Origin: Escherichia phage vB_EcoP_ACG-C91
Direction: 5' to 3' (one strand)
Length of the DNA stretch: 43,731 bases
Sequence record: NC_019403.1
Shown here: in pieces, positions 24,731 to 43,199 of the stretch
Layout of the letters: every line of letters starts with the position of its first letter
How positions within the stretch are numbered: position 1 is the first letter of the stretch
The notes under the pieces: model-generated
The model's input: the letters and a program-made list of their open reading frames with translations, nothing else
The model's database searches: none
Told to the model about the DNA's origin: nothing
Program-made: the position numbers and the translations under genes

Positions 24731-25468
24731 ATGCCTGTAATTAGACAAACCAGTAAAGTAGGACATATGATGGAAGATGTGGCCTTCCAGATTATTGATA
24801 GTAAGCTGGAAGCGGTAAACTTGTGTATGCGAGCTATTGGTCGTGAGGGTGTGGATTCTCTCGACTCAGGTGACTTGGACGCAGAAGATGCAAGCAAGAT
24901 GATCGACATCGTATCCCAGCGATTCCAGTACAACAAAGGAGGTGGCTGGTGGTTCAATCGTGAACCAAACTGGCAGATTGCACCTGATACCAATGGTGAA
25001 GTCAATCTACCTAACAACTGCCTAGCAGTATTGCAGTGTTATGCTTTGGGTGAGAAGAAAGTACCCATGACTATGCGAGCAGGCAAGCTCTACTCTACAT
25101 GGAGTCATACCTTTGATATGCGTAAGCATGTGAATGCTAATGGTGTGATTCGTCTTACCTTACTTACCTTACTTCCATATGAGCATCTACCTACTAGTGT
25201 AATGCAGGCTATTGCCTATCAAGCTGCTGTAGAGTTTATTGTATCTAAGGATGCAGATAAGACTAAGCTAGCCACTGCACAGCAGATTGCCACTCAGCTT
25301 CTTATGGATGTGCAATCTGAACAAATGTCACAAAAGCGATTGAATGTGCTTGTGCATAATCCTACGCAGCGTCAGTTCGGTATTATGGCGGGTGGCTCTC
25401 AGAATGTACCTGCTTACTCTCATTCACCATATGATAGCTGGGCACTTCGTCCTTGGGAGGATCGCTAA
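24731..25468 (+). CDS. Tail tubular protein A (gp11-like)
   Basis: ATG 24731 with AGGAGG RBS (ORF track 24716 start lies inside the terminator); position after capsid. Confidence 0.75.
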   Translation: MPVIRQTSKVGHMMEDVAFQIIDSKLEAVNLCMRAIGREGVDSLDSGDLDAEDASKMIDIVSQRFQYNKGGGWWFNREPNWQIAPDTNGEVNLPNNCLAVLQCYALGEKKVPMTMRAGKLYSTWSHTFDMRKHVNANGVIRLTLLTLLPYEHLPTSVMQAIAYQAAVEFIVSKDADKTKLATAQQIATQLLMDVQSEQMSQKRLNVLVHNPTQRQFGIMAGGSQNVPAYSHSPYDSWALRPWEDR

Positions 25469-27870
25469 TGGAAGTACAAGGTTCATTAGGGAGGCAAATC
25501 CAAGGGATTAGCCAGCAACCCCCAGCAGTACGTCTTGACGGTCAATGCACGACTATGGTGAACATGGTCCCTGATGTAGTGAATGGGACTCAATCCCGCA
25601 TGGGTACAACTCACATTGCTAAGCTCTTGGATGAAGGTACAGATAATATGGCAACGCACCATTATCGCAGAGGCGAGGGGGATGAAGAGTATTTCTTCAC
25701 CTTAAAGAAAGGGCAAGTGCCAGAGATATTTGATAAGCATGGACGCAAGTGCAACGTCACCTCTCAAGATGCACCTAGGACCTACCTTTCTGAAGTTGTT
25801 AACCCAAGGGAAGATGTGCAATTCATGACTATAGCTGATGTTACTTTCATGCTTAACCGTAGGAAAGTGGTTAAAGTTAGTAATAGGAAGTCACCTAAAG
25901 TTGGAGATAAAGCCATTGTGTTTTGTGCATATGGTCAATACGGTACATCTTATTCCATCATAATTAATGGAACTACGGCGGCTAGTTTTAAAACACCAGA
26001 TGGTGGAAGTGCAGACCACGTTGAACAAATTCGAACGGAACGTATCACTTCTGAATTGTACTCCAAGTTACAGCAATGGAGCGGTGTAGGCGACTATGAA
26101 ATACAAAAAGATGGTACGAGTATATTTATAGAGAGACGTGATGGTACAAGTTTCACAGTGACAACTACTGATGGTGCAAAAGGTAAGGATTTAGTGGCTA
26201 TCAAGAATAAAGTTAGCTCTACTGACCTACTCCCTTCTCGTGCGCCTGCGGGTTATAAAGTGCAAGTGTGGCCTACTGGCAGTAAACCTGAGTCCCGCTA
26301 CTGGCTGCAAGCTGAGCCTAAAGAGGGAAACCTCGTGTCTTGGAAAGAAACAATAGCTGCCGATGTATTACTTGGGTTTGATAAAGGAACAATGCCTTAC
26401 ATCATTGAACGTACAGGTATCATTGACGGCATAGCTCAATTCAAGATAAGACAAGGTGATTGGGAAGACCGTAAAGTGGGGGACGACCTGACTAACCCTA
26501 TGCCTTCTTTTATTGATGAGGAAGTACCTCAGACAATAGGTGGGATGTTCATGGTGCAGAACCGTCTATGCTTTACAGCAGGTGAAGCAGTTATTGCCTC
26601 CCGTACATCTTACTTCTTCGATTTCTTCCGCTATACGGTTATCTCTGCATTGGCAACTGACCCATTTGACATCTTCTCAGATGCGAGTGAGGTTTACCAG
26701 CTAAAACATGCAGTGACCTTAGACGGCGCTACCGTGTTGTTCTCTGATAAGTCACAATTCATACTGCCAGGCGACAAGCCTTTAGAGAAGTCAAATGCAT
26801 TGCTTAAGCCTGTTACAACATTTGAAGTGAACAATAAAGTGAAGCCAGTGGTAACTGGTGAATCGGTAATGTTTGCCACTAATGAGGGTTCTTACTCTGG
26901 TGTACGAGAGTTCTATACAGACTCTTATAGTGACACTAAGAAGGCACAAGCAATCACAAGTCATGTGAATAAACTCATCGAAGGTAACATTACCAACATG
27001 GCAGCAAGCACCAATGTCAACAGGTTACTTGTCACTACCGATAAGTATCGTAACATAATCTACTGCTACGATTGGTTATGGCAAGGAACAGACCGTGTAC
27101 AATCAGCATGGCATGTATGGAAGTGGCCTATAGGTACAAAGGTGCGAGGTATGTTTTATTCTGGTGAATTACTTTACCTGCTCCTTGAGCGAGGAGATGG
27201 CGTATATCTGGAGAAGATGGACATGGGTGATGCACTAACCTACGGTTTGAATGACCGCATCAGAATGGATAGGCAAGCAGAGTTAGTCTTCAAGCATTTT
27301 AAAGCAGAAGATGAATGGGTGTCTGAACCTCTTCCTTGGACTCCTACTAACCCAGAGCTTTTGGATTGCATCTTAATAGACGGATGGGGTTCATATATTG
27401 GTGGTTCTTTCCTATTCAAATACAACCCCGGTGATAACACCTTGTCTACAACCTTTGATATGCATGATGATAGCCACGTAAAAGCGAAGGTTATTGTTGG
27501 TCAGATTTACCCTCAAGAGTTTGAACCAACACCTGTAGTTATCAGAGATAGGCAAGACCGTGTATCCTATATTGATGTACCTGTTGTGGGGTTGGTTCAC
27601 CTTAATCTTGATATGTACCCTGATTTCTCCGTGGAGGTTAAGAATGCGAAGAGTGGTAAAGTACGCAGGGTGCTAGCGTCAAACCGTATAGGTGGTGCTC
27701 TCAACAATACAGTAGGTTATGTTGAACCAAGAGAAGGTGTCTTCAGATTCCCACTGAGAGCTAAGAGTACGGATGCTGTTTATCGTATTATTGTAGAATC
27801 ACCTCACACATTCCAGCTCCGCGATATTGAGTGGGAAGGTAGTTATAATCCAACTAGAAGGAGAGTCTAA
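25468..27870 (+). CDS. Tail tubular protein B (gp12-like)
   Basis: 800 aa from ATG 25468 (GGGAGG RBS, overlaps upstream stop); size and position as T7 gp12. Confidence 0.8.
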   Translation: MEVQGSLGRQIQGISQQPPAVRLDGQCTTMVNMVPDVVNGTQSRMGTTHIAKLLDEGTDNMATHHYRRGEGDEEYFFTLKKGQVPEIFDKHGRKCNVTSQDAPRTYLSEVVNPREDVQFMTIADVTFMLNRRKVVKVSNRKSPKVGDKAIVFCAYGQYGTSYSIIINGTTAASFKTPDGGSADHVEQIRTERITSELYSKLQQWSGVGDYEIQKDGTSIFIERRDGTSFTVTTTDGAKGKDLVAIKNKVSSTDLLPSRAPAGYKVQVWPTGSKPESRYWLQAEPKEGNLVSWKETIAADVLLGFDKGTMPYIIERTGIIDGIAQFKIRQGDWEDRKVGDDLTNPMPSFIDEEVPQTIGGMFMVQNRLCFTAGEAVIASRTSYFFDFFRYTVISALATDPFDIFSDASEVYQLKHAVTLDGATVLFSDKSQFILPGDKPLEKSNALLKPVTTFEVNNKVKPVVTGESVMFATNEGSYSGVREFYTDSYSDTKKAQAITSHVNKLIEGNITNMAASTNVNRLLVTTDKYRNIIYCYDWLWQGTDRVQSAWHVWKWPIGTKVRGMFYSGELLYLLLERGDGVYLEKMDMGDALTYGLNDRIRMDRQAELVFKHFKAEDEWVSEPLPWTPTNPELLDCILIDGWGSYIGGSFLFKYNPGDNTLSTTFDMHDDSHVKAKVIVGQIYPQEFEPTPVVIRDRQDRVSYIDVPVVGLVHLNLDMYPDFSVEVKNAKSGKVRRVLASNRIGGALNNTVGYVEPREGVFRFPLRAKSTDAVYRIIVESPHTFQLRDIEWEGSYNPTRRRV

Positions 27871-28598
27871 TGGCAATCGGTTCAGCCGTTATGTCTGGTA
27901 TGTCTTCTATTGGTAGTATGTTTGCAGGCAGCGGTGCAGCAGCCGCTGCTGGAGGGGCAGCCACGGCCGCAGGTGGTGGAGGTTTACTAGGCTCACTTGG
28001 TGGCTTCCTCACTGGCTCAACCGCTGGCTTCTCTAATGCTGGCCTTCTTAGTGCTGGCCTTCAGGGTTTAGGCTTAATTGGTGATCTCTTTGGTGGGAGT
28101 GATGAAGCCAAGGCGATGAAGAAAGCACAAGAAGAGCAATGGCGGCAGCAATTAATTGCTACACAAGAAGCGTACAAGACAGTGGCAGACGCAGAACGTT
28201 CTGCTGCAAAACAGTATCATGCAGATGCAATCAGTAATCAGGCTTCACTGCTACAGCAGCGAGCACAGGTTGCATTACTTGCTGGGGCCACTGGTACTGG
28301 CGGTAACTCTGTGTCCTCTATGCTTAATGATTTAGCAGCAGATGGCGGCAGAAACCAGAGTACCATCATTGATAACTATGAGAATCAGAAGATTAATTTC
28401 ACCAACCAGCTTAAGTCTATCCAACGCGGTGGTCAGATGCAGATGCGTGAGTTTAAGAAGCCTTCTGCTATGAGCACCTTAGTTCAGGGCATTCCAAGTC
28501 TGGCATCTGCTTATGTAACTGGTAGTAAGTCTGGCAAGGCATTAGGTAAAGCCTTAACTGATTCTCGTACATATTCATCTGGAACAAGAGGTATTTAA
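27870..28598 (+). CDS. Internal virion protein (Gly/Ala-rich N-terminus)
   Basis: 242 aa; first of three consecutive core-protein genes. Confidence 0.7.
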   Translation: MAIGSAVMSGMSSIGSMFAGSGAAAAAGGAATAAGGGGLLGSLGGFLTGSTAGFSNAGLLSAGLQGLGLIGDLFGGSDEAKAMKKAQEEQWRQQLIATQEAYKTVADAERSAAKQYHADAISNQASLLQQRAQVALLAGATGTGGNSVSSMLNDLAADGGRNQSTIIDNYENQKINFTNQLKSIQRGGQMQMREFKKPSAMSTLVQGIPSLASAYVTGSKSGKALGKALTDSRTYSSGTRGI

Positions 28599-31546
28599 TG
28601 GCAATCGAGCGACAAGCAGTACAAGGTCTGCCACAAGTGCAGGCCACTTCTCCTAATGTCATGACCTTTGCACCTCAACAAGTTGGAGGTGTGGAGGCTG
28701 GCGTGGCTTCTACCTCCGGTAGTAGGTTTATCGAAGACCTTATTCGTGCAGCCAGCAGTGTGGCTGATGTTACCACTGGTATTCTTAATCAGAAGATTGA
28801 GGAAGATAAGGTTGTTCAAATGGAAAGGGCATACAATGGATTAATGCCCTCTGAGGACGCAACTCGTGGTGGCGCTCGTGCTAACATGCTTGTCAAAGCT
28901 CAACTGCTAGCTAATGATGAAGCAGCACGAATGAAAGACATGGCTACTCGTTTCCAAGGGACGGATGACGAGTGGACACAACTTATGGTTGACTCTCGTA
29001 ATGAGATGCAGAATAAGCTGTTCAAGCAATACCCTGAGTTGCAAGGTGACAAAGATACTATGCGTATGGTCACTAATGTCTTCCAAGAACAGCAGCCTCA
29101 GATTTGGGCTACACGGACCCGGCATAAACTTGACCGTGAACAAGCAGACCGTGAGGATACCTTTGACGGGCGAGTGGCTTCTACTTGGGATTCTAATATT
29201 GATCCTGAAGCCTCTGGCTATGCTTTACAGGAACGAATCCGCGAAGGTCTGACTCAAGGATTACTACCTGAACAGATGCACAAGAAGTTAGTCCAGCGGG
29301 CAATTTCACTTGCACAAGGTGGAGATGTTAGCATGGCTGAAGCCCTGAAGTATGTGAAGGACGATAAGGGCGTTTCTGTTTATGCTAAGAATCCACAGCT
29401 TATCACAGCCATCACTAGTGGTAATGCAGTTTGGGCTAGAAATAATGTAGCTGATGTAACTCGTATGTCTTTTGAAGTCAAAGAATCCTACCTTGCAGGT
29501 GACTTGACTGATGAAGAGTTACTTGAGCGAGCACAGCACATTAATGGTCTGACAGGTAACTCTGTCTTCTCTAATCCAGAACTTGAAGCACTCATGCGTC
29601 AACGAGCTAAACAGAATGCAGAACTAGGTGCAATGCAAGATATGCGCCGTGAGCTTTATTCTGATCGCATGATAGGGTTCCAAGGCAAAACTGACAAAGA
29701 GAAGAAAGCCTATGTTGATGTTATTAAACAGGACAGTCAACTATGTGCAGACCAGCAGATTAAGCAGCGAGGTCTTGACCCTTATAGCCAAGAAGCTGAA
29801 GCTATTCGTGGTGCTGTAGAGGTTCAACGGCTCCAGTTTATGAACTCAAAGGGCTTAGTGGATGACACCTTTGAAGCTCGTATCAAGGCTATGGAATCTA
29901 TGCTATCACCTGAACACTTCTCTAAAGGTGAGCCACAAGAGTTGATGAACATTCGCCAGCTGTGGGAGCAGCTACCCGAAGAAAGCCGAGGTGTCTTTGG
30001 GGACACGGTGAATGGCTACATGGACAACTATAATACCGCCTTGCAGATGGGCGAAACACCTTTGCAGGCTGCAAGGTTTGCCCGTGAAGCACAGCAGAAA
30101 TTCTCTCGTACTGAGAAAGAAACTAAGAAGTTTAACTCGGCTATTGGAGATGCACTTGATGAAGTATCAGGTGCTGGCTGGTTTGATGGTAAAACTGAAG
30201 TGTCTGACTTAGGTAAAGCTATCGCAGAAGAAGAACTGCGAGCTAAGGCGAATATGCTGTGGTCTAGCGGTATGCGCAACATGGACTCTATCAAGAAGGC
30301 TTTAATTACTTGGGGCAATAAGAGATATACTCAATCAGAGGATGCAAAGACTTCCGGTGGATACTTTATTAAAGGTGATTACACTTCTGCATCTGATATG
30401 CTTATGTCAGTTGGGAAAGGTGTAAACCCTACCGATGTTCCTCTGGCGCTAGGTAGGTATGTAGAGACACAGATGCCAGAGCTGAAGAAAGAGCTTCAAG
30501 AGTGGGAAACTAAAGATGATGTATATATTGATTACAATGAACAGAAAGGAACTTTTGTGATTCGTGCTGGTGCAGCAGGTCGCCCTCTTTCTGGAGTAAT
30601 CCCTGTAACATCCTTGGATACCACTTCCCTATTGGATTCTGCTTACAAGGCGAAAGTTGAAGCACGAAATAAAGGTGAATATGTACATCCCTATCGTACA
30701 GATATTGGTGCACAAGAGCCTATGCCAGATAAACCTACGGCTAAAGACATTGGTAAGCTAGGTCTTGCTAATTTCCTTATGTCTTCTGCTTTTGCTTCCG
30801 GCGAGAATCTCCCTGTTAACTTCGAGATTAACTATCAAGGAAACATGCAGCAGTTCTACAACAAGCTGGCTATGGAGGAAAATAGAGATAAGGTTGGCTT
30901 TAATAAGGCAACTGGAACCTTTACCCCATACAAAGATGCTCACGGTGAGTCCATAGGTTACGGTCACTTCTTAACAGAGGAGGAGAAGAGGAACGGATAT
31001 ATTAAGATTGGAGACGAGCTAGTTCCATACCGAGGTTCTATGTCTCAGCTTACTGAGAGTAAGGCCCGTGCCCTTATGAAGCAAGATGCCAAGAAGCATG
31101 TACCTTCTACTCGTGATTGGAAGATCCCATTTGACCAAATGCATCCAGCGCAGCAACGTGGTATTATGGGTTTATCTTACAATCTAGGTCGTGGTGGTAT
31201 CCAAAACTCACCTCGTGCACTTGCTGCATTCAAAGCAGGTAAGCTCACTGAAGGCTTTATCGAAATGCTTGGTACAGCCTCAAGTGAAGGTAAGCGCATT
31301 CCTGGCTTATTGAAGCGTAGGGCAGAGGCTTATAATATGGCATCTGCTGGAGGTGTGCCTAAGATTACCGAAGTAGAGACTCGTGAAGATGGCTCTATGT
31401 GGGTTAAGTTTGGTGGACCTATGCCAGCAGGGTCTGTTTCTGCATGGACTCACAAACGTATTGGTGCTGATGGTTGGTATCAAGTCTATGAGGCTGCACC
31501 AACTAAATTAGCCAAAGGAACCAAAGTGGGTAAAATTAAGTTATAG
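28598..31546 (+). CDS. Internal virion (ejection) protein with C-terminal lysozyme-like domain
   Basis: 982 aa; C-terminal region YKDAHGESIGYGHF...GIMGLSYNLGRGG resembles T4-lysozyme-type (GH24) motif YKDTEGYYTIGIGH. Confidence 0.8.
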   Translation: MAIERQAVQGLPQVQATSPNVMTFAPQQVGGVEAGVASTSGSRFIEDLIRAASSVADVTTGILNQKIEEDKVVQMERAYNGLMPSEDATRGGARANMLVKAQLLANDEAARMKDMATRFQGTDDEWTQLMVDSRNEMQNKLFKQYPELQGDKDTMRMVTNVFQEQQPQIWATRTRHKLDREQADREDTFDGRVASTWDSNIDPEASGYALQERIREGLTQGLLPEQMHKKLVQRAISLAQGGDVSMAEALKYVKDDKGVSVYAKNPQLITAITSGNAVWARNNVADVTRMSFEVKESYLAGDLTDEELLERAQHINGLTGNSVFSNPELEALMRQRAKQNAELGAMQDMRRELYSDRMIGFQGKTDKEKKAYVDVIKQDSQLCADQQIKQRGLDPYSQEAEAIRGAVEVQRLQFMNSKGLVDDTFEARIKAMESMLSPEHFSKGEPQELMNIRQLWEQLPEESRGVFGDTVNGYMDNYNTALQMGETPLQAARFAREAQQKFSRTEKETKKFNSAIGDALDEVSGAGWFDGKTEVSDLGKAIAEEELRAKANMLWSSGMRNMDSIKKALITWGNKRYTQSEDAKTSGGYFIKGDYTSASDMLMSVGKGVNPTDVPLALGRYVETQMPELKKELQEWETKDDVYIDYNEQKGTFVIRAGAAGRPLSGVIPVTSLDTTSLLDSAYKAKVEARNKGEYVHPYRTDIGAQEPMPDKPTAKDIGKLGLANFLMSSAFASGENLPVNFEINYQGNMQQFYNKLAMEENRDKVGFNKATGTFTPYKDAHGESIGYGHFLTEEEKRNGYIKIGDELVPYRGSMSQLTESKARALMKQDAKKHVPSTRDWKIPFDQMHPAQQRGIMGLSYNLGRGGIQNSPRALAAFKAGKLTEGFIEMLGTASSEGKRIPGLLKRRAEAYNMASAGGVPKITEVETREDGSMWVKFGGPMPAGSVSAWTHKRIGADGWYQVYEAAPTKLAKGTKVGKIKL

Positions 31547-31610: not shown

Positions 31611-34600
31611 ATGGAACAAGATATTCAAACTAATTGGGCTAGTTATGTACAGTCCACTCCTGAGCTGTTTGCTATTGAGGCGGCTCCGGTATCGGCTCCT
31701 ACGATACGTCAGCGTAATGAGTTGCAAGAGCAAGTTCTTGAAGCTAAAGCGGACGCTGATGTCTTAGGGGCTGTAGGTGCTGCCTTCCAGAATGAATGGT
31801 TGGCATTTGGGGGTGAGCGGTGGTATGACCGTGCCACTGCTGACTTTGCACCTCAACCTGACTTTGAAATACAACCAGAGCGACGTGAAGCTCTCCGCTT
31901 CAAATATGGCACAGATATGATGCAGGCAATCACGGAAGGGGTTCGCTCTGAGGATGAGTTAAACTTTCGTATTCAGAATGCAGATGAAGACCTTGAGCGC
32001 AATAGGCGTATTGCTCAGGCAGGCTGGGTTGGCCCTGTGGCAACGGTTGGTGCTGCTGTGCTTGACCCTGTAGGCTGGGTTGCCTCTATTCCAACTGGCG
32101 GCGCAGTTAAGGTTGGCCTTGTGGGTCGTGCTGTCCGTGGTGCTATAGCAGCTGGTGTGAGTAATGCCGCTATTGAATCCGTATTGGTCCAAGGTGACAT
32201 GACTCGTGATTTAGATGACATTATGGTAGCACTAGGTTCCGGTATGGCTATGGGTAGTGTTATTGGCGCTGTAGCGCGTGGTAGGGCCACTAAGCTCAGT
32301 GAGCAAGGGGATGACAGGGCTGCGAGTATTGTGCGCAGTGCAGACGCAGGGGACCGCTATGTGCGTGCTGTTGCTGACGACAGTATCGGTGCGATGCGTG
32401 TTAAGGGTGCAGAGGTGCTTACTGAGGGGGCTTTTGACATCTCTAGTAAAGGTGAAGATTTACTGAAAACCTTGCAGCGTGAGGGCAATGCGATAGACAT
32501 GACACCGCGCCGCTGGGCTGGAACTTTGTCTGCCCTAGGTACTGTTGTGCACTCATCTCAGGATGCCAGCATCCGTGGCCTTGGTGCTCGCCTGTTTGAG
32601 TCCCCGCAAGGTTTGGGTATGCAGAAAGCCTCTGCTAGTCTTATGCAGAATACCAATTTAAACCGCTTAAAGTCTGCGGATATGAACCGCTTCAATGATG
32701 GGTTTGATTTGTGGCTTAAGGAGAACAATATCAATCCGGTAGCAGGGCACACAAACTCTCACTATGTACAGCAATACAACGAGAAGGTATGGGAGGCTGT
32801 GCGTATCGGTATGGATGAATCTACGCCTAAATCCATCCGCATGGCAGCAGAAGGGAAGCAAGCTATGTATCGTGAAGCCTTAGCCTTACGCCAACGCTCT
32901 GGTGAAGCTGGCTTTGAAAAGGTTAAAGCTGACGATAAGTATATGCCTGATATTTTTGATAGTATGAAGGCTCGCCGTCAATTCGATATGCATGATAAAG
33001 AAGATATTATTGAGTTATTCTCTCGTGCATACCAGAATGGTGCTCGTAAGATTCCAAAGGAAGTAGCAGAGGAGATTGCACGAGCACAGGTTAACCGTGT
33101 TGCTGATGCCACCTTGACAGGTCGTATGAGTTTTGAAAAAGCTATGTCTGGTCAAACTAAAGCAGAGTATGAAGCTATTATGCGTAAGGCTGGCTTTAGT
33201 GATGAAGAAATTGAAAAGATGGTAGAAGCTCTGGATAACAAAGAAACCAGAGATAATATCTCTAACCGAGCTAAGATGAGTTTAGGGTTGGATGTTACTC
33301 AAGAGTACAAGGGTATCCGTATGCGTGACTTTATGAATACCAACGTAGAGGAGTTAACAGACAACTACATGAAAGAAGCGGCAGGGGGTGCTGCATTAGC
33401 TCGCCAAGGCTTCTCTACTTATCAAGCCGCACTTAACGCCATTGACCTTGTAGAGCGAAATGCACGTAACACAGCCAAAGATAGTAAAGCAAGCCTAGCT
33501 TTAGATGAGGAAGTTCGTCAGATGCGAGAAGGTCTTCGCTTAATTATGGGTAAATCTATTGATGCAGACCCACAGGCTCGCTCCGCTAAGATGCTGCGTC
33601 GTGGTCGTGACATTACAGGTGTACTTCGCTTAGGTCAGATGGGCTTCGCACAGCTAGGTGAACTTGCTAACTTCATGGGTGAGTTTGGTGTTGCTGCAAC
33701 CACTATAGCTTTAGGTAAGCAATTCCGCTTTACCTCCAAAGCACTACGCAGTGGTGATGGCTTCTTCCGAGATAAGAACTTGGCAGAAGTAGAGCGAATG
33801 GTAGGTTATATTGGTGAAGACAACTGGCTAACAACCAAGGGTGCACGTCCAGACGAGTTCGGTGATGTAACAACGGTGCGCGGTATGATGGTCCACTTTG
33901 ACCAGTCCATGAACTCAATTCGTCGCGCTCAGACAAACCTGTCCCTCTTCCGCATGGCTCAGGGTTCTCTAGAGCGAATGACCAATAGGCAGATAGCCCT
34001 GTCTTTTATCGACCACCTTGAAGGTAAGAAGGTTATTCCTCAGAAGAAACTTGAGGAGCTTGGTCTTACTCAGGAGTTCATGACTAGCTTACAGAATCAT
34101 TATGATGCTAACTCTAAAGGCTCTGGCTTACTTGGCTTTGATACAATGCCTTATGCCATGGGTGAAACTTTAGCTAATGCTATTCGTCGTAAGTCAGGTT
34201 TAATTATCCAACGTAACTTCATTGGTGATGAAGGTATCTGGATGAACAAAGCACTAGGCAAGACCTTTGCACAACTTAAGTCATTCTCTCTCGTATCTGG
34301 TGAGAAGCAATTTGGTCGAGGTATTCGCCACGATAAAATTGGCCTAGCTAAGAAGACAGCCTTTGGCTTTGCTTTAGGTTCTATGGTGTATGCAGCGAAA
34401 ACTTATGTTAACTCTATTGGACGAGATGACCAAGATGAATACCTTGAGGAGAAACTGTCACCTAAAGGTTTGGCATTTGGTGCATTGGGCATGATGAGTA
34501 CAACTGCTGTATTTAGTCTAGGTGGGGATTTCTTAGGCGGTTTAGGTGTTCTTCCCTCAGAGTTGGTACAATCACGTTATGAGGCTGGCTTTCAGACTAA

Positions 34601-34796
34601 AGGCTTGATAGACCAAATTCCCCTAGTTGGTGTAGGTCAAGATGCTTACCGTCTGGCAGACTCTATAACTAAGTACGCTGAAGGTGACACAGAGGGCGTA
34701 GATGTGGCACGCAGAGTGTTGCGCTTAGTGCCTCTTACAAATGTAATAGGGGTCCAAAACGCATTGCGTTATGGCTTAGATGAACTGGAGGATTGA
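31611..34796 (+). CDS. Internal virion (ejection/core) protein, large
   Basis: 1061 aa; Gly/Ala-rich hydrophobic segments near N-terminus; TAAGGAGG RBS; position as T7 gp16. Confidence 0.8.
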   Translation: MEQDIQTNWASYVQSTPELFAIEAAPVSAPTIRQRNELQEQVLEAKADADVLGAVGAAFQNEWLAFGGERWYDRATADFAPQPDFEIQPERREALRFKYGTDMMQAITEGVRSEDELNFRIQNADEDLERNRRIAQAGWVGPVATVGAAVLDPVGWVASIPTGGAVKVGLVGRAVRGAIAAGVSNAAIESVLVQGDMTRDLDDIMVALGSGMAMGSVIGAVARGRATKLSEQGDDRAASIVRSADAGDRYVRAVADDSIGAMRVKGAEVLTEGAFDISSKGEDLLKTLQREGNAIDMTPRRWAGTLSALGTVVHSSQDASIRGLGARLFESPQGLGMQKASASLMQNTNLNRLKSADMNRFNDGFDLWLKENNINPVAGHTNSHYVQQYNEKVWEAVRIGMDESTPKSIRMAAEGKQAMYREALALRQRSGEAGFEKVKADDKYMPDIFDSMKARRQFDMHDKEDIIELFSRAYQNGARKIPKEVAEEIARAQVNRVADATLTGRMSFEKAMSGQTKAEYEAIMRKAGFSDEEIEKMVEALDNKETRDNISNRAKMSLGLDVTQEYKGIRMRDFMNTNVEELTDNYMKEAAGGAALARQGFSTYQAALNAIDLVERNARNTAKDSKASLALDEEVRQMREGLRLIMGKSIDADPQARSAKMLRRGRDITGVLRLGQMGFAQLGELANFMGEFGVAATTIALGKQFRFTSKALRSGDGFFRDKNLAEVERMVGYIGEDNWLTTKGARPDEFGDVTTVRGMMVHFDQSMNSIRRAQTNLSLFRMAQGSLERMTNRQIALSFIDHLEGKKVIPQKKLEELGLTQEFMTSLQNHYDANSKGSGLLGFDTMPYAMGETLANAIRRKSGLIIQRNFIGDEGIWMNKALGKTFAQLKSFSLVSGEKQFGRGIRHDKIGLAKKTAFGFALGSMVYAAKTYVNSIGRDDQDEYLEEKLSPKGLAFGALGMMSTTAVFSLGGDFLGGLGVLPSELVQSRYEAGFQTKGLIDQIPLVGVGQDAYRLADSITKYAEGDTEGVDVARRVLRLVPLTNVIGVQNALRYGLDELED

Positions 34797-35769: not shown

Positions 35770-35994
35770 ATGATTAACTCCGAACTGGTAGACAGTGGTG
35801 TGAAGCTGGCGCCACCTGCACTTGTCTCAGGTGGGTACTTCCTCGGTATCAGTTGGGATAACTGGCTTGTAATTATGACCCTCATTTACACTATTATGCA
35901 AATGGGTTGGTTTATCTACGAGAAGGTCCGAACTATAAAACAGAGAAGAAAAGAGAAGTGTATTCAGAAGTTGAAAGAGCAGGATACATCATAA
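35770..35994 (+). CDS. Holin (T7 gp17.5-like)
   Basis: 74 aa; LAPPALVSGGYFLGISWDNWLVIMTLIYTIMQMGWFIY parallels T7 holin (AAPIVGTGV...GLSLNEWFYVAAIAYTVVQIG); single TM plus charged C-terminus. Confidence 0.7.
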   Translation: MINSELVDSGVKLAPPALVSGGYFLGISWDNWLVIMTLIYTIMQMGWFIYEKVRTIKQRRKEKCIQKLKEQDTS

Positions 35995-36344
35995 CTGAAG
36001 AAGGTTTTGTATTAAGTAAGAAGGGTAAGAGGCTGGCAGGAGCTATCAGAGAAAGAGGCTACCGTACTGTTTCTCTGCGAATTGATGGTAAGACTAAAAC
36101 TTATAAAGTACACAGATTAGTAGCATGGAAGCACGTACCTAATCCTCACAATTATAAGATAGTAAGCCATAAAGATCGCAACCCTTCTAATTGTCATAAA
36201 GACAACCTAGAGTGGTGTACTCAACAGGAGAATACAATACATGCACATTATGGTTGTTTAAACATTGACAACAAGGTTGCTGAAGCTAAACGATTAAGGG
36301 AGGAGGTTGGTCTTACCCTAAAATTGGTAGGCATTTCGGACTAG
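35907..36344 (+). CDS. HNH homing endonuclease (HNH_3 type)
   Basis: GYRTVSLRIDGKTKTYKVHRLVAWKHVPNPHNYKIVSHKDRNPSNCHKDNLEWCTQQEN: canonical HNH motif; start uncertain (ATG 35907 overlaps holin; alternative in-frame GTG 35958). Confidence 0.85.
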   Translation: MVYLREGPNYKTEKKREVYSEVERAGYIITEEGFVLSKKGKRLAGAIRERGYRTVSLRIDGKTKTYKVHRLVAWKHVPNPHNYKIVSHKDRNPSNCHKDNLEWCTQQENTIHAHYGCLNIDNKVAEAKRLREEVGLTLKLVGISD

Positions 36345-36384: not shown

Positions 36385-36684
36385 ATGAGCGTACACAATA
36401 AACATGCAGCTACAGAGGATGAAGTTGGCATTCTGCATGGTGCTATTACCAAAATCTTCAATAAGAAAGCACAGGCAATACTGGACACTATAGAGGGGGA
36501 CCCCGATGCAGCATTGCATTTAGTATCTGGTAAAGATATTGGTGCTATGTGTAAGTGGGTTCTAGATAACGGCATCACTGCTACACCTGCTGCACAGCAG
36601 GAAGAGTCCAAGTTATCTAAGCGCCTCAAGGCTATCCGAGAGGCATCCAGTGGTAAGAGCATCCAATTCACTAAGGAGGATTGA
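36385..36684 (+). CDS. Terminase small subunit (putative)
   Basis: 99 aa directly upstream of and overlapping large terminase; GGGAGG RBS. Confidence 0.6.
   Translation: MSVHNKHAATEDEVGILHGAITKIFNKKAQAILDTIEGDPDAALHLVSGKDIGAMCKWVLDNGITATPAAQQEESKLSKRLKAIREASSGKSIQFTKED
36470..36492 (+). promoter_or_regulatory. Promoter-like sequence inside small-terminase ORF (ACTGGACACTATAGAGGG)
   Basis: Matches the downstream 15 nt of consensus; upstream part diverged. Confidence 0.35.
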
Positions 36685-38582
36685 TGGCTAAGGCAAGAGA
36701 ATCACAAGCAGAGGCTCTTGCCAGATGGGAGATGTTACAGGAGTTACAGCAGACCTTTCCTTACACAGCAGAAGGTTTGCTTCTCTTTGCAGATACAGTT
36801 ATCCATAACTTGATTGCAGGCAACCCTCATCTGATTCGTATGCAGGCCGATATATTAAAGTTCTTATTCTATGGACATAAGTATCGCCTCATCGAAGCGC
36901 CTCGTGGTATTGCTAAGACAACACTATCAGCAATCTATACAGTATTCCGTATCATCCATGAGCCACATAAACGTATCATGGTTGTATCCCAAAACGCCAA
37001 GCGAGCAGAGGAAATTGCAGGTTGGGTAGTGAAAATCTTCCGTGGCCTAGACTTCCTTGAGTTTATGCTACCGGACATATACGCTGGCGACCGTGCATCC
37101 GTCAAAGCATTTGAGATTCACTACACGTTACGCGGCAGCGATAAGTCACCTTCTGTATCCTGTTACTCTATCGAAGCAGGTATGCAGGGTGCTCGTGCTG
37201 ATATTATTCTAGCAGATGACGTAGAATCGATGCAGAATGCTCGTACAGCAGCAGGTCGTGCCTTGCTTGAGGAATTAACTAAGGAATTTGAATCTATCAA
37301 CCAGTTTGGTGATATTATCTACCTTGGGACACCACAGAATGTAAACTCTATCTACAATAACTTGCCTGCCCGTGGATACTCTGTTCGTATCTGGACGGCA
37401 CGTTATCCTTCAGTAGAACAGGAGCAATGTTATGGTGACTTCCTTGCACCAATGATTGTTCAAGATATGAAGGATAACCCAGCACTTCGCTCTGGCTACG
37501 GTTTGGATGGTAACAGTGGTGCACCTTGCGCACCTGAGATGTATGATGACGAAGTGTTGATTGAGAAGGAAATTTCTCAAGGTGCTGCTAAGTTCCAGCT
37601 TCAGTTTATGCTGAACACTCGCATGATGGATGCTGACAGATACCCACTTCGTCTAAACAATCTAATCTTTACTTCGTTCGGTACAGAGGAAGTCCCTGTG
37701 ATGCCTACGTGGAGTAATGATTCTATTAATATCATTGGCGATGCCCCTAAGTATGGTAACAAGCCTACAGACTTTATGTATAGACCTGTAGCCCGTCCTT
37801 ACGAATGGGGTGCTGTTACCCGTAAGATTATGTATATTGACCCTGCGGGTGGTGGTAAGAACGGGGATGAAACGGGTGTGGCTATCGTCTTCCTGCACGG
37901 CACATTCATTTATGTGTATCAGTGCTTTGGTGTGCCGGGAGGATACCGCGAATCGTCCCTGAATCGCATTGTGCAGGCCGCAAAGCAGGCGGGTGTTAAA
38001 GAGGTATTCATAGAGAAAAACTTCGGCCATGGCGCGTTTGAGGCCGTAATTAAGCCGTACTTTGAGCGAGAGTGGCCTGTGACTCTGGAAGAGGATTACG
38101 CCACCGGACAGAAAGAGTTGCGTATCATTGAAACACTAGAGCCACTAATGGCGGCCCACAGGCTCATCTTCAACTCAGAGATGGTCAAGTCTGATTTTGA
38201 GTCGGTACAGCACTATCCGCTTGAACTACGCATGTCATACAGCCTTTTCAATCAAATGTCGAACATCACGATTGAGAAGAACAGCCTACGACACGATGAC
38301 CGCTTAGACGCTCTGTATGGCGCTATACGGCAATTAACTTCTCAGATAGACTATGACGAGGTTACACGGATTAATCGCCTCAGAGCGCAGGAGATGCGCG
38401 ATTACATCCATGCTATGAACACACCTCACCTCCGTAGGGCAATGCTCTATGGAGATTATGGCACTGAGCGAAGAGTAACCAACACTTCCGTGGCTATGCA
38501 GCAAAGAGTATACGGTCAGAATTACAGGAGTAAATCGGCAAGCAGAAATACACTTTCTGCAAGGATTTCAAGGACTTATTAA
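36684..38582 (+). CDS. Terminase large subunit (DNA maturase, T7 gp19-like)
   Basis: 632 aa; Walker A-like PRGIAKTT; ATG 36684 with AAGGAGG RBS. Confidence 0.9.
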   Translation: MAKARESQAEALARWEMLQELQQTFPYTAEGLLLFADTVIHNLIAGNPHLIRMQADILKFLFYGHKYRLIEAPRGIAKTTLSAIYTVFRIIHEPHKRIMVVSQNAKRAEEIAGWVVKIFRGLDFLEFMLPDIYAGDRASVKAFEIHYTLRGSDKSPSVSCYSIEAGMQGARADIILADDVESMQNARTAAGRALLEELTKEFESINQFGDIIYLGTPQNVNSIYNNLPARGYSVRIWTARYPSVEQEQCYGDFLAPMIVQDMKDNPALRSGYGLDGNSGAPCAPEMYDDEVLIEKEISQGAAKFQLQFMLNTRMMDADRYPLRLNNLIFTSFGTEEVPVMPTWSNDSINIIGDAPKYGNKPTDFMYRPVARPYEWGAVTRKIMYIDPAGGGKNGDETGVAIVFLHGTFIYVYQCFGVPGGYRESSLNRIVQAAKQAGVKEVFIEKNFGHGAFEAVIKPYFEREWPVTLEEDYATGQKELRIIETLEPLMAAHRLIFNSEMVKSDFESVQHYPLELRMSYSLFNQMSNITIEKNSLRHDDRLDALYGAIRQLTSQIDYDEVTRINRLRAQEMRDYIHAMNTPHLRRAMLYGDYGTERRVTNTSVAMQQRVYGQNYRSKSASRNTLSARISRTY

Positions 38583-39029: not shown

Positions 39030-39347
39030 ATGTCTAATTATGGAGACGCAGATACTGTTACGGGTCAGGCTTTTCGAGTAAAAACTGTACAAACAACTGC
39101 AACGGCAATTCCTTTGCCTATTGTTGCTGAAGCAGACCTTAAGAAGAAAGATCACCCTATCAACATTAAACACCTATCTGGTAAACAGAAAGGCTCCATG
39201 GTTGCTGTAGAGAAAGCAGGCAACCCCTTGTACATCGCTATTGCACGTGGTAGTGAACCTACTGACCCTTGGGATGCAACCGCTATGGAGTCGACCCCTG
39301 TAACCCCTAAGGGCTTAATTGTAAAAGATGAGGTCAATAGTGCTTAA
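39030..39347 (+). CDS. Hypothetical protein (105 aa), paralog of the previous gene
   Basis: ORF track; AAGAGGAG RBS. Confidence 0.65.
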   Translation: MSNYGDADTVTGQAFRVKTVQTTATAIPLPIVAEADLKKKDHPINIKHLSGKQKGSMVAVEKAGNPLYIAIARGSEPTDPWDATAMESTPVTPKGLIVKDEVNSA

Positions 39348-39684
39348 CAAGTACTTCAAGCGTAAAGAGTTTGCTTGCCGTTGTGGGTGCGGTACATCCA
39401 CTGTTGATGCTGAGTTATTACAGGTAGTCACAGATGTACGTGAGCATTTTGGCGTACCTGTAGTTATCACTTCTGGTCATCGCTGTGCTAAGCACAACGC
39501 CAACGTAGGTGGAGCTAAGAACTCCATGCATCTTACAGGTAAGGCTGCTGATATTAAGGTACAAGGTATTACACCGTATCGTGTATGGTCTTACCTAACA
39601 GCACGATACCCTAATAGATATGGAATTGGGTCTTACCAAAACTTCACTCACATTGATGTACGAGATGGGTGTGCGCGATGGTAA
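39328..39684 (+). CDS. Endolysin, peptidase M15 family (L-alanyl-D-glutamate peptidase-like)
   Basis: SGHRCAKHNANVGGAKNSMHLTGKAADI...THIDVR: zinc-binding H/D/H signature of M15 peptidases; start may be GTG 39340. Confidence 0.85.
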   Translation: MRSIVLNKYFKRKEFACRCGCGTSTVDAELLQVVTDVREHFGVPVVITSGHRCAKHNANVGGAKNSMHLTGKAADIKVQGITPYRVWSYLTARYPNRYGIGSYQNFTHIDVRDGCARW

Positions 39685-40361: not shown

Positions 40362-40697
40362 ATGGGTAAGTTAACTAAACCAAAGACAACTGGCTTGCTG
40401 CATGGAAACACTCTAGTATCTACCTTGTTAGATAATTTGGTATCTAAGAGGCGTGTTACGTTTGAGAGAGTAGTACCAAGTGAAGATACTAAAATTGAGA
40501 TAGAAGTACCAGCAACAGGAGATTTAGATTCTTCATGGGTATCAATTGTATCATTAAGTACACCTGCACTTTGTACAGCTTGGATCACTAAACTGTCAGA
40601 TACTACTTTAGAGATTCATGTCTTTCATACAGCACAAGTCGAAATAGACATAGAGGTAGATGTTTACTATCTGGGTAAACATGTTATCAGTGCGTAA
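40362..40697 (+). CDS. 111-aa protein upstream of endosialidase (tailspike-locus ORF)
   Basis: ORF track; position and length match the small ORF I recall preceding the endosialidase gene in coliphage K1E (where K1-5 carries a K5 lyase). Confidence 0.65.
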   Translation: MGKLTKPKTTGLLHGNTLVSTLLDNLVSKRRVTFERVVPSEDTKIEIEVPATGDLDSSWVSIVSLSTPALCTAWITKLSDTTLEIHVFHTAQVEIDIEVDVYYLGKHVISA

Positions 40698-40763: not shown

Positions 40764-43199
40764 ATGCTTCAGAGACTTGGGGCTTCTTTGGTAAAATTTA
40801 AAAGTAAACTGCTGAACTCTGCATATCGCAACCTTGATGATAAGCTAACGGAGTTAGTATCATTAAAAGATTTCGGTGCTAAAGGGGACGGAGTTACTAA
40901 CGATAACGCAGCAGTGGTTGCAGCTATGGCTACTGGTAAGCGTATCGATGGGGCAGGCGCTACTTATAAGGTAGATGCACTACCTGACATGGAACGCTTC
41001 TACAATACGAGATTTGTATGGGAGAGGGTTGCAGGTCAACCTCTTTACTATGTAAGTCAGGGTTTTATTAATGGTGAGTTGTATAAGATTACAGACAACC
41101 CGTACTACAACGCTTGGCCTCAAGATAAAGCCTTTGTATACGAGAACGTAATTTACGCACCTTATATGGGTAGTGACCGTCACGGTGTTAGCCGTCTCCA
41201 TGTGTCATGGGTTAAGTCTGGTGACGATGGTCAAACATGGTCTACTCCAGAGTGGCTTACTGACTTGCACCCAGAGTATCCTACAGTGAACTATCATTGT
41301 ATGAGTATGGGTGTCTGCCGTAACCGCCTATTTGCTATGATTGAAACACGTACCTTAGCGAAGAACGCACTTACAAATTGTGCGCTATGGGATCGCCCTA
41401 TGTCTCGCAGTTTGCATCTCACTGGTGGTATCACGAAGGCAGCAAATCAGCGATATGCAACAATCCATGTACCTGATCACGGGCTGTTTGTGGGTGACTT
41501 TGTTAACTTCTCTAACTCTGCGGTAACAGGTGTATCTGGTGATATGAAGGTTGCAACGGTAATAGATAGGGACAACTTCACGGTTCTTACACCTAACCAG
41601 CAGGCCTCAGATTTGAATAACGCTGGAAAGAACTGGCATATGGGTACTTCATTCCATAAATCGCCATGGCGTAAGACAGATCTTGGCTTGATTCCTCGTG
41701 TTACTGAAGTACATAGCTTTGCTGCTATTGATAACAACGGCTTTGTTATGGGTTATCACCAAGGCGGTGCAGCTCCACGCGAAGTTGGACTATTCTACTT
41801 CCCTAACGCTTTCGATAATCCAGCGAACTATGTTCGTCGTCAGATACCTTCAGAGTATGAGCCAGATGCCGCAGAACCCTGCATCAAGTATTACGATGGT
41901 GTATTGTACCTCATCACCCGTGGTACTAGAAGCGATAGATTGGGAAGCTCTTTGCATCGCAGTAGAGATATAGGTCAGACTTGGGAGTCACTGAGATTTC
42001 CACATAATGTGCATCATACCACTTTACCATTTGCTAAAGTAGGCGATGAGCTTATTATGTTTGGTTCAGAGCGTGCAGAAAATGAATGGGAAGCAGGTGC
42101 ACCAGATGATCGTTACAAGGCATCTTATCCTCGTACCTTCTATGCACGATTGAATGTAAACAAGTGGAGTGCAGATGACATTGAGTGGGTGAACATCACA
42201 GACCAAATCTATCAGGGTGATATTGTAAACTCTAGTGTAGGTGTAGGTTCTGTTGTAGTTAAAGACAGCTATATCTACTACATCTTTGGTGGCGAAAACC
42301 ATTTCAACCCAATGACTTATGGTGACAACAAAGGTAAAGACCCATTTACGGGACATGGACACCCTACTGATATATACTGCTATAAGATGCAGATTGCAAA
42401 CGACACTCGTGTATCTCGTAAGTTCACATATGGTGCAACACCGGGTCAGGCTATACCTACCTTCATGGGCACTGATGGTGTACGAGATATTCCTGCACCT
42501 TTGTACTTCTCAAACGACATCACTACCGAGGATGCTAAAGTTGGACACTTGACTCTTAGAGCAACTACCAGTGCCAACATTAGGTCTGAAGTGCAGATGG
42601 AAGGTGAGTACGGTTTTATTGCTAAGGCTGTTCCAAAGACCAACCCATCAGGTCAACGTTTACTTCTTTGTGGTGGAGAAGGGACTTCATCTTCCACAGG
42701 TGCACAGATAACGTTGCATGGCGCTAATTCAAGTAAACCTAAGCGTATCACCTATAACGGGAATGAACACCTATTCCAAGGTGCACCAATCATGCCTGCT
42801 GTAGATAACCAGTTTGCTGCTGGCGGACCTCGTAACCGATTCACTACTATCTACTTAGGTAGTGACCCTGTTACCACTTCCGATGCTGACCATAAGTATG
42901 GTATCTCTGGTATTGACACCAAGGTATTAAAGGCTTGGAGTCTTGTTGGCTTCAAACAGTACGGTTTGAATAGTGAAGCAGAACGAAACCTTGATAGTGT
43001 ACACTTTGGTGTTTTGGCTCAGGACATCGTAGCTGCTTTTGAAGCTGAAGGTTTGGATGCCATCAAGTACGGGATTGTGTCCTTCGAAGAAGGTAGGTAT
43101 GGTGTAAGGTATAGTGAAGTCCTCATTCTAGAGGCTGCTTATACTCGCTATCGTCTAGATAAATTAGAGGAGATGTATGCCACTAATAAAGTCAGTTAA
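40764..43199 (+). CDS. Endosialidase (endo-N-acetylneuraminidase) tailspike with C-terminal intramolecular chaperone domain
   Basis: 811 aa; two Asp-boxes (SGDDGQTWS, SRDIGQTWES); C-terminal ...GISGIDTKVLKAWSLVGFKQYGLNSEAERNLDSVHFGVLAQDIVAAFEAEGLDAIKYGIVSFEE... typical of the auto-cleaving chaperone domain; AGGAGG RBS. Confidence 0.9.
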   Translation: MLQRLGASLVKFKSKLLNSAYRNLDDKLTELVSLKDFGAKGDGVTNDNAAVVAAMATGKRIDGAGATYKVDALPDMERFYNTRFVWERVAGQPLYYVSQGFINGELYKITDNPYYNAWPQDKAFVYENVIYAPYMGSDRHGVSRLHVSWVKSGDDGQTWSTPEWLTDLHPEYPTVNYHCMSMGVCRNRLFAMIETRTLAKNALTNCALWDRPMSRSLHLTGGITKAANQRYATIHVPDHGLFVGDFVNFSNSAVTGVSGDMKVATVIDRDNFTVLTPNQQASDLNNAGKNWHMGTSFHKSPWRKTDLGLIPRVTEVHSFAAIDNNGFVMGYHQGGAAPREVGLFYFPNAFDNPANYVRRQIPSEYEPDAAEPCIKYYDGVLYLITRGTRSDRLGSSLHRSRDIGQTWESLRFPHNVHHTTLPFAKVGDELIMFGSERAENEWEAGAPDDRYKASYPRTFYARLNVNKWSADDIEWVNITDQIYQGDIVNSSVGVGSVVVKDSYIYYIFGGENHFNPMTYGDNKGKDPFTGHGHPTDIYCYKMQIANDTRVSRKFTYGATPGQAIPTFMGTDGVRDIPAPLYFSNDITTEDAKVGHLTLRATTSANIRSEVQMEGEYGFIAKAVPKTNPSGQRLLLCGGEGTSSSTGAQITLHGANSSKPKRITYNGNEHLFQGAPIMPAVDNQFAAGGPRNRFTTIYLGSDPVTTSDADHKYGISGIDTKVLKAWSLVGFKQYGLNSEAERNLDSVHFGVLAQDIVAAFEAEGLDAIKYGIVSFEEGRYGVRYSEVLILEAAYTRYRLDKLEEMYATNKVS

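Follow-up and report, generated by a model that had tools for sequence, protein, structure and literature searches.

A T4-lysozyme-type (GH24) domain in the gp35 internal virion protein of Escherichia phage vB_EcoP_ACG-C91

Introduction

Virion-associated lysozymes have been described for relatives of the phage studied here. Table 2 of one review (PMC5380687) lists SP6 Gp36 (NP_853596.1) and its K1-5 counterpart (YP_654136.1) as such enzymes, citing Moak & Molineux 2004, and the review describes SP6 gp36 as a lysozyme-active protein of the internal head that contributes to the extensible tail. That the C-terminus of SP6 Gp36 resembles lysozymes is mentioned in PMC4837284, with the observation going back to Dobbins 2004 and Scholl 2004, and K1E and K1-5 gp35 are stated to “contain lysozyme activity” (PMC8954989). 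The phiKMV-like phages have the same design, with a T4-lysozyme-like C-terminus on the middle ejection protein that, in the phiKMV-like Ar-KM, is predicted to point outward at the height of the murein (bioRxiv 10.64898/2026.05.18.726046). Taken by itself, the phiKMV domain is a thermostable, active lysozyme (PMC5380687, with Lavigne 2004 and Briers 2006 cited there). The movement of lysozymes between ejection proteins is an explicit theme both in reviews and in the 2026 structural preprint.

The SLT domain of T7 gp16 differs from the domain described below in its family, in its carrier (gp16 rather than the protein in the gp15 position), and in its location at the opposite terminus (residues 15–127). 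The chemistry would differ too, GH23 transglycosylase as against GH24 hydrolase. Mutants in the T7 gp16 transglycosylase show delayed genome entry when the murein is highly cross-linked. T4 lysozyme (gpe) and the P22/RrrD-type GH24 endolysins possess the same catalytic fold and triad as the gp35 domain, but they are free lysis proteins of about 140–165 aa, whereas the gp35 domain is fused behind about 740 residues. T4 gp5, the tail lysozyme, is another example of a GH24 domain incorporated into a penetration device of the virion.

The gp35 gene and its orthologues

The window (the whole stretch of 43,731 nucleotides, NC_019403.1) belongs to a Vectrevirus (K1E/K1-5-like, SP6 group) and its DNA is about 90–94% identical to that of K1E and K1-5. 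All coordinates reported here are on the plus strand. The ORF at 28598..31546 encodes a gp35-type internal virion (ejection) protein of 982 aa and 109 kDa, an assignment drawn from the ORF list, nucleotide and amino acid identity, PHROG 4290, and RefSeq. It is the orthologue of K1E/K1-5 gp35 and SP6 gp36 and lies in the T7 gp15 position. In a nucleotide search with 63 Vectrevirus records among its matches, the gene is 90% identical to those of K1E and K1-5, with 100% of its length covered, and the protein shares 97% amino acid identity with K1E gp35 and 42% with SP6 gp36. PHROG 4290 (“lysozyme domain-containing protein”) matches residues 1–982 over profile positions 1–969 of 969 (E=0), and RefSeq gives the K1E, K1-5, and SP6 orthologues the same label. 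By analogy with these relatives (PMC5380687, PMC8954989), gp35 is probably a component of ACG-C91 virions and ejected at infection.

K1E gp35 (YP_425013.1) and K1-5 gp35 (YP_654136.1) have the same length of 982 aa, the same gene order, the GH24 domain and the C-terminal module, while SP6 gp36 (NP_853596.1) shows the same architecture and position, with an identity to gp35 of 35% for its N-terminal part and 64% for the lysozyme domain. No other part of the protein is as well conserved between genera as the lysozyme domain (44–64% identity, as against 27–37% for the N-terminal 739 aa). Close relatives were scarce in a large protein collection, where the C-terminal 242 aa used as a query retrieved three proteins and an alignment of nine orthologues retrieved five. 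The roughly 740 residues ahead of the lysozyme domain gave no Pfam match and are presumably helical.

A GH24 domain in the C-terminal part of gp35

The initial annotation had recognized a T4-lysozyme (GH24) domain in the C-terminal part of this internal virion protein from two peptides. Both lie in the frame of the ORF, YKDAHGESIGYGHF at residues 778–791 (nt 30929–30970) and GLSYNLGRGG at residues 858–867 (nt 31169–31198). The Pfam search that it proposed for residues of about 770–920 returned PF00959 (Phage_lysozyme) at residues 776–910 (E=1.7e-9, 38.5 bits, gathering cut-off 22.3), and the SP6 orthologue scored 39.8 bits against the same family at residues 770–905. In a sequence search of the PDB, T4 lysozyme chains were the only matches (best E=2e-3, residues 777–890). 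A search with a profile of the domain found 948 proteins, with PF00959 present in nearly all of 120 among the matches listed; collecting GH24 sequences required a profile that included distant members. NCBIfam gave a sub-threshold match only, to a gene-transfer-agent endolysin model.

An AlphaFold2 model of the C-terminal region, built from a 122-sequence alignment, reached a pLDDT of 90.9 and a pTM of 0.84. The predicted domain has the two-lobed T4-lysozyme fold and its closest structural matches are GH24 lysozymes, the best being RrrD, P22 lysozyme, and FAHEc1 endolysin. It differs from the T4/P22/RrrD-type endolysins by an extra beta-hairpin at residues 801–810. By the Pfam, PDB, profile, and model results the resemblance to lysozyme goes well beyond chance, and chance similarity was rejected. 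A reading as an SLT-type domain was also rejected, as the protein has no match to Pfam SLT (PF01464), by which GH23 membership was judged.

The domain extends over residues of about 740–918 (30815..31351). The range given originally, 30900–31360, locates the domain correctly, but it misses the reading frame by one base (30899 being the first position of codon 768), so that translating it directly yields many stops, and it omits the N-terminal helix (residues of about 740–762), leaving E761 20 nt upstream of its start. The accompanying view that the fold differs from that of the T7 gp16 transglycosylase does not hold, since GH24 and SLT (GH23) share a lysozyme-like superfold.

Catalytic residues and motif spacing

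E761 (codon at 30878..30880) is the predicted catalytic general acid and corresponds to T4 lysozyme E11 in the orthologue and GH24 alignments and in the model, where it stands at the C-terminal end of the first helix (residues 740–762). It is invariant in nine Molineuxvirinae orthologues, and its column in the 122-sequence GH24 alignment holds Glu in 113 of the 115 non-gap sequences. The HMMER alignment to T4 lysozyme places YKD onto Y18-K19-D20, so that D780 (30935..30937) corresponds to D20, and pairs S785 (30950..30952) with T26. The D780 column reads D75/S34/C7 and the S785 column T108/S3, with S, T, or N at the latter position in Molineuxvirinae orthologues. E761, D780, and S785 are all intact and match the T4 lysozyme triad. 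The initial annotation had named as refuting evidence the lack of a glycoside hydrolase family match and of the catalytic Glu/Asp; what was found is a PF00959/GH24 match with both E761 and D780 present.

The canonical GH24 spacing is E-x8-D-x5-T. In gp35 it is E-x18-D-x4-S, because a lineage-wide insertion of 10 residues follows the Glu, unlike in the T4/P22/RrrD-type endolysins, and it is owing to this insertion that the Pfam alignment starts only past the Glu.

Gene neighbourhood and lysis cassette

The gene order around gp35 is nozzle, gp14-like, gp35, gp16-like, and it is conserved in eight relatives with flanks available (K1E, SP6, CrRp3, PM 116, phD2B, Koku, PP1, and Era103). The nozzle or tubular tail protein B (T7 gp12-like; 25453..27870; Pfam PF25675 Phage_nozzle, E=8e-178) would form the exit channel for the core proteins. 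It is followed by gp34, a T7 gp14-like internal virion protein (27870..28598; Pfam PF24072 T7_gp14, E=5.8e-33; PHROG 805), which is a homologue of the outer-membrane component of T7. Downstream of gp35 lies gp36 (31611..34796; PHROG 342), a T7 gp16-like internal virion protein without the N-terminal SLT: the PHROG 342 match covers the profile only from position 181 onward, and Pfam SLT is absent in gp36, K1E gp36, and SP6 gp37, with T7 gp16 as the positive control of the search (SLT at residues 15–127). SP6 gp37 exceeds ACG-C91 gp36 in length by about 200 aa.

Homology between the N-terminal body of gp35 and T7 gp15 was not detected by hhalign with a nine-sequence profile (probability 0.1%, E=0.55), and a profile search of the PDB found no ejection-protein chains. 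For this reason we describe gp35 as being in the gp15 position and not as a gp15 homologue, and a “periplasmic tunnel” role is drawn from gene order and published assignments. The T7 gp15 assignment in published work itself draws on synteny together with secondary structure (PMC8954989, PMC4819975).

The window also encodes a T7-type class II holin (35770..35994; Pfam PF10746, E=3.7e-18) and the endolysin of the lysis cassette (Peptidase_M15_3; 39328..39684; Pfam PF08291, E=1.2e-32). By gene order, the K1E “endolysin” gene (gp43) occupies the position equivalent to the latter, and the K1E lysis region has an annotated Rz-like spanin as well.

Proposed role during entry

Because of its core-gene context, the SLT-less gp16-like protein next to it, and the holin and M15 endolysin that are encoded separately, the best reading of the GH24 domain is that of an enzyme for entry and not for lysis. 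We consider it very probable that gp35 residues of about 740–918 form a catalytically competent GH24 (T4/P22-lysozyme-type) muramidase carried in the internal core of the capsid. The part in cell-wall penetration suggested in the initial annotation is thereby supported, as gene order, the separate lysis cassette, and the reviews PMC5380687 and PMC8954989 all fit it. Its comparison with T7 gp16 stands as to the C-terminal location of the domain and needs amending as to the carrier, which is the protein in the gp15 position, the gp16-like protein being without SLT.

Taking the architecture of the T7 and phiKMV-like ejectosomes from published descriptions, we infer the ejection and refolding sequence that follows, along with hydrolase over transglycosylase chemistry and the activity of the ACG-C91 allele. 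The K1 capsule would be cleared first by the endosialidase tailspike. The proteins gp34, gp35, and gp36 would then be ejected by way of the portal and nozzle and reassemble as a trans-envelope conduit, in which gp35 would take the periplasm-spanning place of T7 gp15. Its C-terminal lysozyme would refold and cut MurNAc-beta-1,4-GlcNAc bonds locally, with E761 as the general acid and a water positioned by D780 and S785, and the hole in the murein would allow the conduit and gp36 to reach the inner membrane. The domain would functionally substitute for the N-terminal SLT transglycosylase of T7 gp16, and a virion-associated lysozyme on gp35 would explain a gp36 that lacks it.

The initial observation of a lysozyme domain is confirmed and the domain itself is already known: it is annotated in RefSeq and PHROGs, and orthologues are listed as virion-associated lysozymes from work of 2004. 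The only two unreported elements are the unique D858G and a conserved 64-residue module assigned to no known family. For annotation, the value lies in naming gp35 as the virion-associated lysin of a K1-specific phage, and refoldable, thermostable muralytic enzymes are of some applied interest, as shown for phiKMV gp36C.

D858G and alternative readings of the domain

The G858 codon (GGT, 31169..31171) represents a lineage-unique Asp-to-Gly substitution in a conserved helix of the domain, at the position of T4 lysozyme N101. All 20 relatives examined have Asp here (K1E codon GAT), as do eight contigs in IMG/VR, where Gly was found in none. In the 122-sequence alignment the column is D in 81 sequences and Gly only in ACG-C91. 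Relative to K1E, gp35 has 33 substitutions, 14 of them inside the lysozyme domain and D858G among these. The DNA of the gene is a mosaic in comparison with K1E/K1-5, with 96–98% identity over the first 300 codons and 84–92% afterwards.

Judged by this conservation, D858G could lower lysozyme activity. Together with the non-canonical Glu–Asp spacing, it would fit a domain that has kept the lysozyme fold while being weakened or inactive in ACG-C91, and whose main function in the ejectosome would be structural or murein-binding. We regard this as quite unlikely, given that the three catalytic residues are intact and that the spacing is no different in the orthologues of SP6 and K1-5, both listed as active. 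Position 858 is moreover variable across GH24, where S, N, E, C, and A are found as well and T4 lysozyme has Asn, and the DNA around codon 858 has diverged as a block (84–86% nucleotide identity) and therefore resembles ordinary lineage divergence, not decay.

GH24 comprises both hydrolase and transglycosylase chemistries, and lambda R is a member that produces 1,6-anhydro-MurNAc. The gp35 domain might similarly be a lytic transglycosylase acting on the same bond, as the T7 enzyme being replaced is a transglycosylase (SLT) and the reaction product is not fixed by sequence and predicted fold alone. This is very improbable in view of the T4/P22-type signature Y-x-D...[ST]-I-G-x-G-H, whose Asp and Ser/Thr position the hydrolytic water in T4 lysozyme, and of the best structural matches (RrrD, P22 lysozyme, and FAHEc1 endolysin), which we take to be muramidases. 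The SP6 and K1-5 proteins are also classed as lysozymes in PMC5380687.

That the domain is the endolysin with which the phage lyses its host from inside when infection ends, as the PHROG category “lysis” and the lysis function annotated in some records would have it, can practically be dismissed, because it is not a small free enzyme encoded among lysis genes but is fused to a 109-kDa protein within the internal-core gene cluster, in a phage with a separate holin and M15 peptidase endolysin (and, in K1E, the spanin).

Comparison with phiKMV gp36

For all their common design, gp35 and phiKMV gp36 showed BLASTP similarity limited to the YKDAxGxS[IV]GxGH motif (10 of 15 residues), and phiKMV gp36 gave no Pfam PF00959 match at E<0.01. 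In the phiKMV protein, which is 898 aa long, the motif lies at residue 760, and this leaves too little space for a complete 64-residue C-terminal module. Compared at the sequence level, the SP6-group and phiKMV-group lysozyme fusions may reflect either a distant relationship or independent fusion.

The C-terminal module

Residues 920–982 (31355..31543) form a conserved, mostly-beta module, delineated from the orthologue alignment and the model. This 64-residue module reaches the stop codon, and none of the nine aligned Molineuxvirinae orthologues lacks it. It might be a murein-binding or gp36-docking element that places the lysozyme in the ejectosome, with D858G altering activity or substrate preference, though we hold this combination to be rather unlikely.

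A Pfam search of residues 915–982 returned nothing even at E<=10. HMMER matches to PD40/FG-GAP-like repeat proteins were weak and spread over multiple stretches, and we rejected them as compositional or short-motif similarity rather than homology. Among 1.84 billion representatives searched with HMMER, residues 915–982 found one representative of 982 aa that is 96% identical over the module. The module has a pLDDT above 90 in the AlphaFold2 model, which agrees over the entire C-terminal region with the BFVD model of an orthologue from an Erwinia phage (TMq 0.93).

Identification of a GH24 domain in gp35

Analysis of the ORF at 28598..31546 (+), which encodes gp35 (982 aa, calculated mass 109 kDa), revealed that residues 776–910 match the Pfam family PF00959 (Phage_lysozyme, GH24) with an E-value of 1.7e-9 and 38.5 bits, the gathering score being 22.3. 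PHROG 4290 (“lysozyme domain-containing protein”) covers the whole of gp35 (E = 0), and the PDB sequence matches, whether from a single-sequence search or from a profile of nine orthologues, were T4 lysozyme chains only. A profile built from the domain finds 948 proteins, with PF00959 present in nearly all of the 120 listed. The lysozyme domain is also the best-conserved part of gp35 across genera (44–64% identity vs. 27–37% for residues 1–739). The resemblance to lysozyme is real and far above chance, which bears out the T4-lysozyme (GH24) likeness proposed from sequence in the initial annotation; both peptides quoted there exist in the ORF (residues 778–791 and 858–867). The proposed range of 30900–31360 needs correction: its start lies one base out of frame, read literally it contains many stops, and the domain begins about 85 nt upstream of 30900, a stretch that includes the catalytic Glu.

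The finding is correct but not new, since lysozymes have been reported in orthologues. Virion-associated lysozymes listed by Latka et al. (2017; PMC5380687, Table 2) include SP6 Gp36 (NP_853596.1, 107 kDa) and a K1-5 protein (YP_654136.1, 109 kDa), both entries being credited there to Moak & Molineux (2004); these are exactly the gp35 orthologues compared here. A passage in PMC4837284, recalling Dobbins (2004) and Scholl (2004), describes the SP6 Gp36 C-terminus as similar to cell-wall lysozymes, and Hardies et al. (2016; PMC4819975) generalized that tail lysozyme domains are variably hosted by internal virion proteins. In a 2026 preprint (10.64898/2026.05.18.726046) the gp15-like protein of a phage related to phiKMV was visualized with its T4-lysozyme-like domain; of 205 Autographivirales genomes analyzed there, 127 had an identifiable domain, and 31 of these showed the C-terminal layout. 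The likeness of phiKMV gp36 itself to gp35 is limited to the motif YKDAxGxS[IV]GxGH; phiKMV gp36 falls below PF00959 detection in a Pfam search at E < 0.01 and is, by length, too short for the full module that follows the lysozyme domain in gp35.

Catalytic residues and predicted structure

The HMMER alignment places Y778-K779-D780 on Y18-K19-D20 of T4 lysozyme and S785-I-G-Y-G-H on T26-I-G-I-G-H. Both the Pfam and PDB alignments begin past the catalytic Glu because this lineage carries a 10-residue insertion between Glu and Asp. Among nine aligned Molineuxvirinae orthologues E761-N762 is invariant, unlike the adjacent E760, and in a 122-sequence GH24 alignment the E761 column holds Glu in 113 of 115 non-gap sequences, with G72/N35 at N762, D75/S34/C7 at D780 and T108/S3 at S785. 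Given these aligned and conserved columns, gp35 possesses the catalytic triad, spaced E-x18-D-x4-S. The initial annotation had staked its proposal on a glycoside hydrolase family match and a catalytic Glu and Asp; PF00959, E761 and D780 supply them, although the E761 codon (30878–30880, +) lies upstream of its range.

An AlphaFold2 model of residues 735–982, built with the 122-sequence alignment, reached a pLDDT of 90.9 and a pTM of 0.84. It predicts a helix (740–762) with the catalytic Glu at its end, a β-hairpin bearing both D780 and S785, an additional hairpin (801–810) and a helical lobe running to about residue 918. The best Foldseek matches were T4 lysozyme, R21 and a fungal GH24 muramidase, and a BFVD search matched the entire model to the 953-aa orthologue from Erwinia phage S2, named “Lysozyme” (TMq 0.93). 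The lysozyme fold is followed by a small, mostly β, confidently modelled 64-residue module (residues 920–982; 31355–31543, +) that is kept in 9/9 aligned Molineuxvirinae orthologues. A Pfam search assigned it to no family; outside its own family it gave only weak, multi-stretch, repeat-driven matches to PD40/FG-GAP-type repeat proteins, which are probably spurious.

Gene neighborhood and proposed role in entry

The gp35 gene is preceded by a nozzle gene (PF25675) and by the gene for gp34, which is gp14-like (PF24072), and is followed at 31611–34796 by the gene for the 1061-aa gp36, a member of the T7 gp16 family (PHROG 342) that aligns only from profile position 181 on. A Pfam SLT (transglycosylase) domain was not found in gp36, K1E gp36 or SP6 gp37, while T7 gp16, as positive control, gave SLT at residues 15–127. 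The three-gene order and annotation are common to K1E, SP6, Citrobacter, Proteus, Lelliottia, Klebsiella, Pectobacterium and Erwinia phages. In size, gp36 is shorter than its K1E counterpart (1102 aa), a highly charged segment of 41 residues (AHAQFEAESAKIRQSEPDYKKAQEKIEELKKRLKLKEKDEA) being absent after residue 626, and SP6 gp37 exceeds gp36 of the present phage by about 200 aa.

The GH24 domain is dispensable for lysis from within, since the phage encodes separate lysis proteins, a holin of the T7 type (35770..35994, +) and an endolysin of the Peptidase_M15_3 family (39328..39684, +). The synteny, the lack of SLT in gp36 and these lysis genes support, with minor corrections, the cell-wall-entry role put forward in the initial annotation, and gp35 is best regarded as a virion-associated lysin. 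We infer that it is packaged in the internal core, ejected together with gp34 and gp36 and refolded as the periplasm-spanning part of the conduit, where its C-terminal muramidase would hydrolyze murein to make a local opening. In T7 the same task is done by the gp16 SLT domain; the analogy drawn with T7 gp16 holds for murein opening but not for the carrier, which occupies the gp15 position and is not the gp16 counterpart. An hhalign comparison of residues 1–739 with T7 gp15 did not reveal sequence homology (probability 0.1%).

Relatives and features peculiar to this phage

The gp35 gene has about 90% DNA identity over 100% of its length to K1E, K1-5 and a further 61 records. Almost all of these matches are Vectrevirus (Molineuxvirinae, SP6 group of T7-like podophages), and over the window's first 25 kb the identity to the same phages is 93–94%. 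The full-length tailspike (40764..43199, +) has β-propeller, β-barrel, tail-spike and S74 chaperone domains and is an endosialidase, so the phage belongs to the K1E type and is specific for the K1 capsule. The tailspike region is K1E-like: just before the tailspike, in the K1E gp46 position, lies a 111-aa ORF (40362–40697, +) with no Pfam match which, like K1E gp46, is far below the size of a second full-length tailspike. A 145-aa HNH_3 homing-endonuclease ORF with a TTG start (35907–36344, +) overlaps the 3′ end of the holin and precedes the small terminase subunit. The corresponding site in K1E holds no gene; there a homing endonuclease instead interrupts the large terminase gene, whereas the present phage has that gene unbroken (36681..38582).

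Codon 858 of gp35 (31169–31171, +) is GGT (Gly), whereas K1E has GAT. Asp occupies this position in 20/20 relatives examined, from Vectrevirus to Erwinia phages, and IMG/VR contigs with the same motif gave eight with Asp and none with Gly. The residue, equivalent to T4 lysozyme N101, lies within a helix conserved in the lysozyme domain, and the position is variable among GH24 enzymes (D81/S14/N12/E7/C5/A2), so that Gly858 may affect activity although no such effect is predicted. Compared with K1E (segment 6001–8949), the gp35 gene is a mosaic, with 96–98% nucleotide identity over the first 300 codons and 84–92% over the remainder; this fall in identity suggests a recombination boundary around codon 300.
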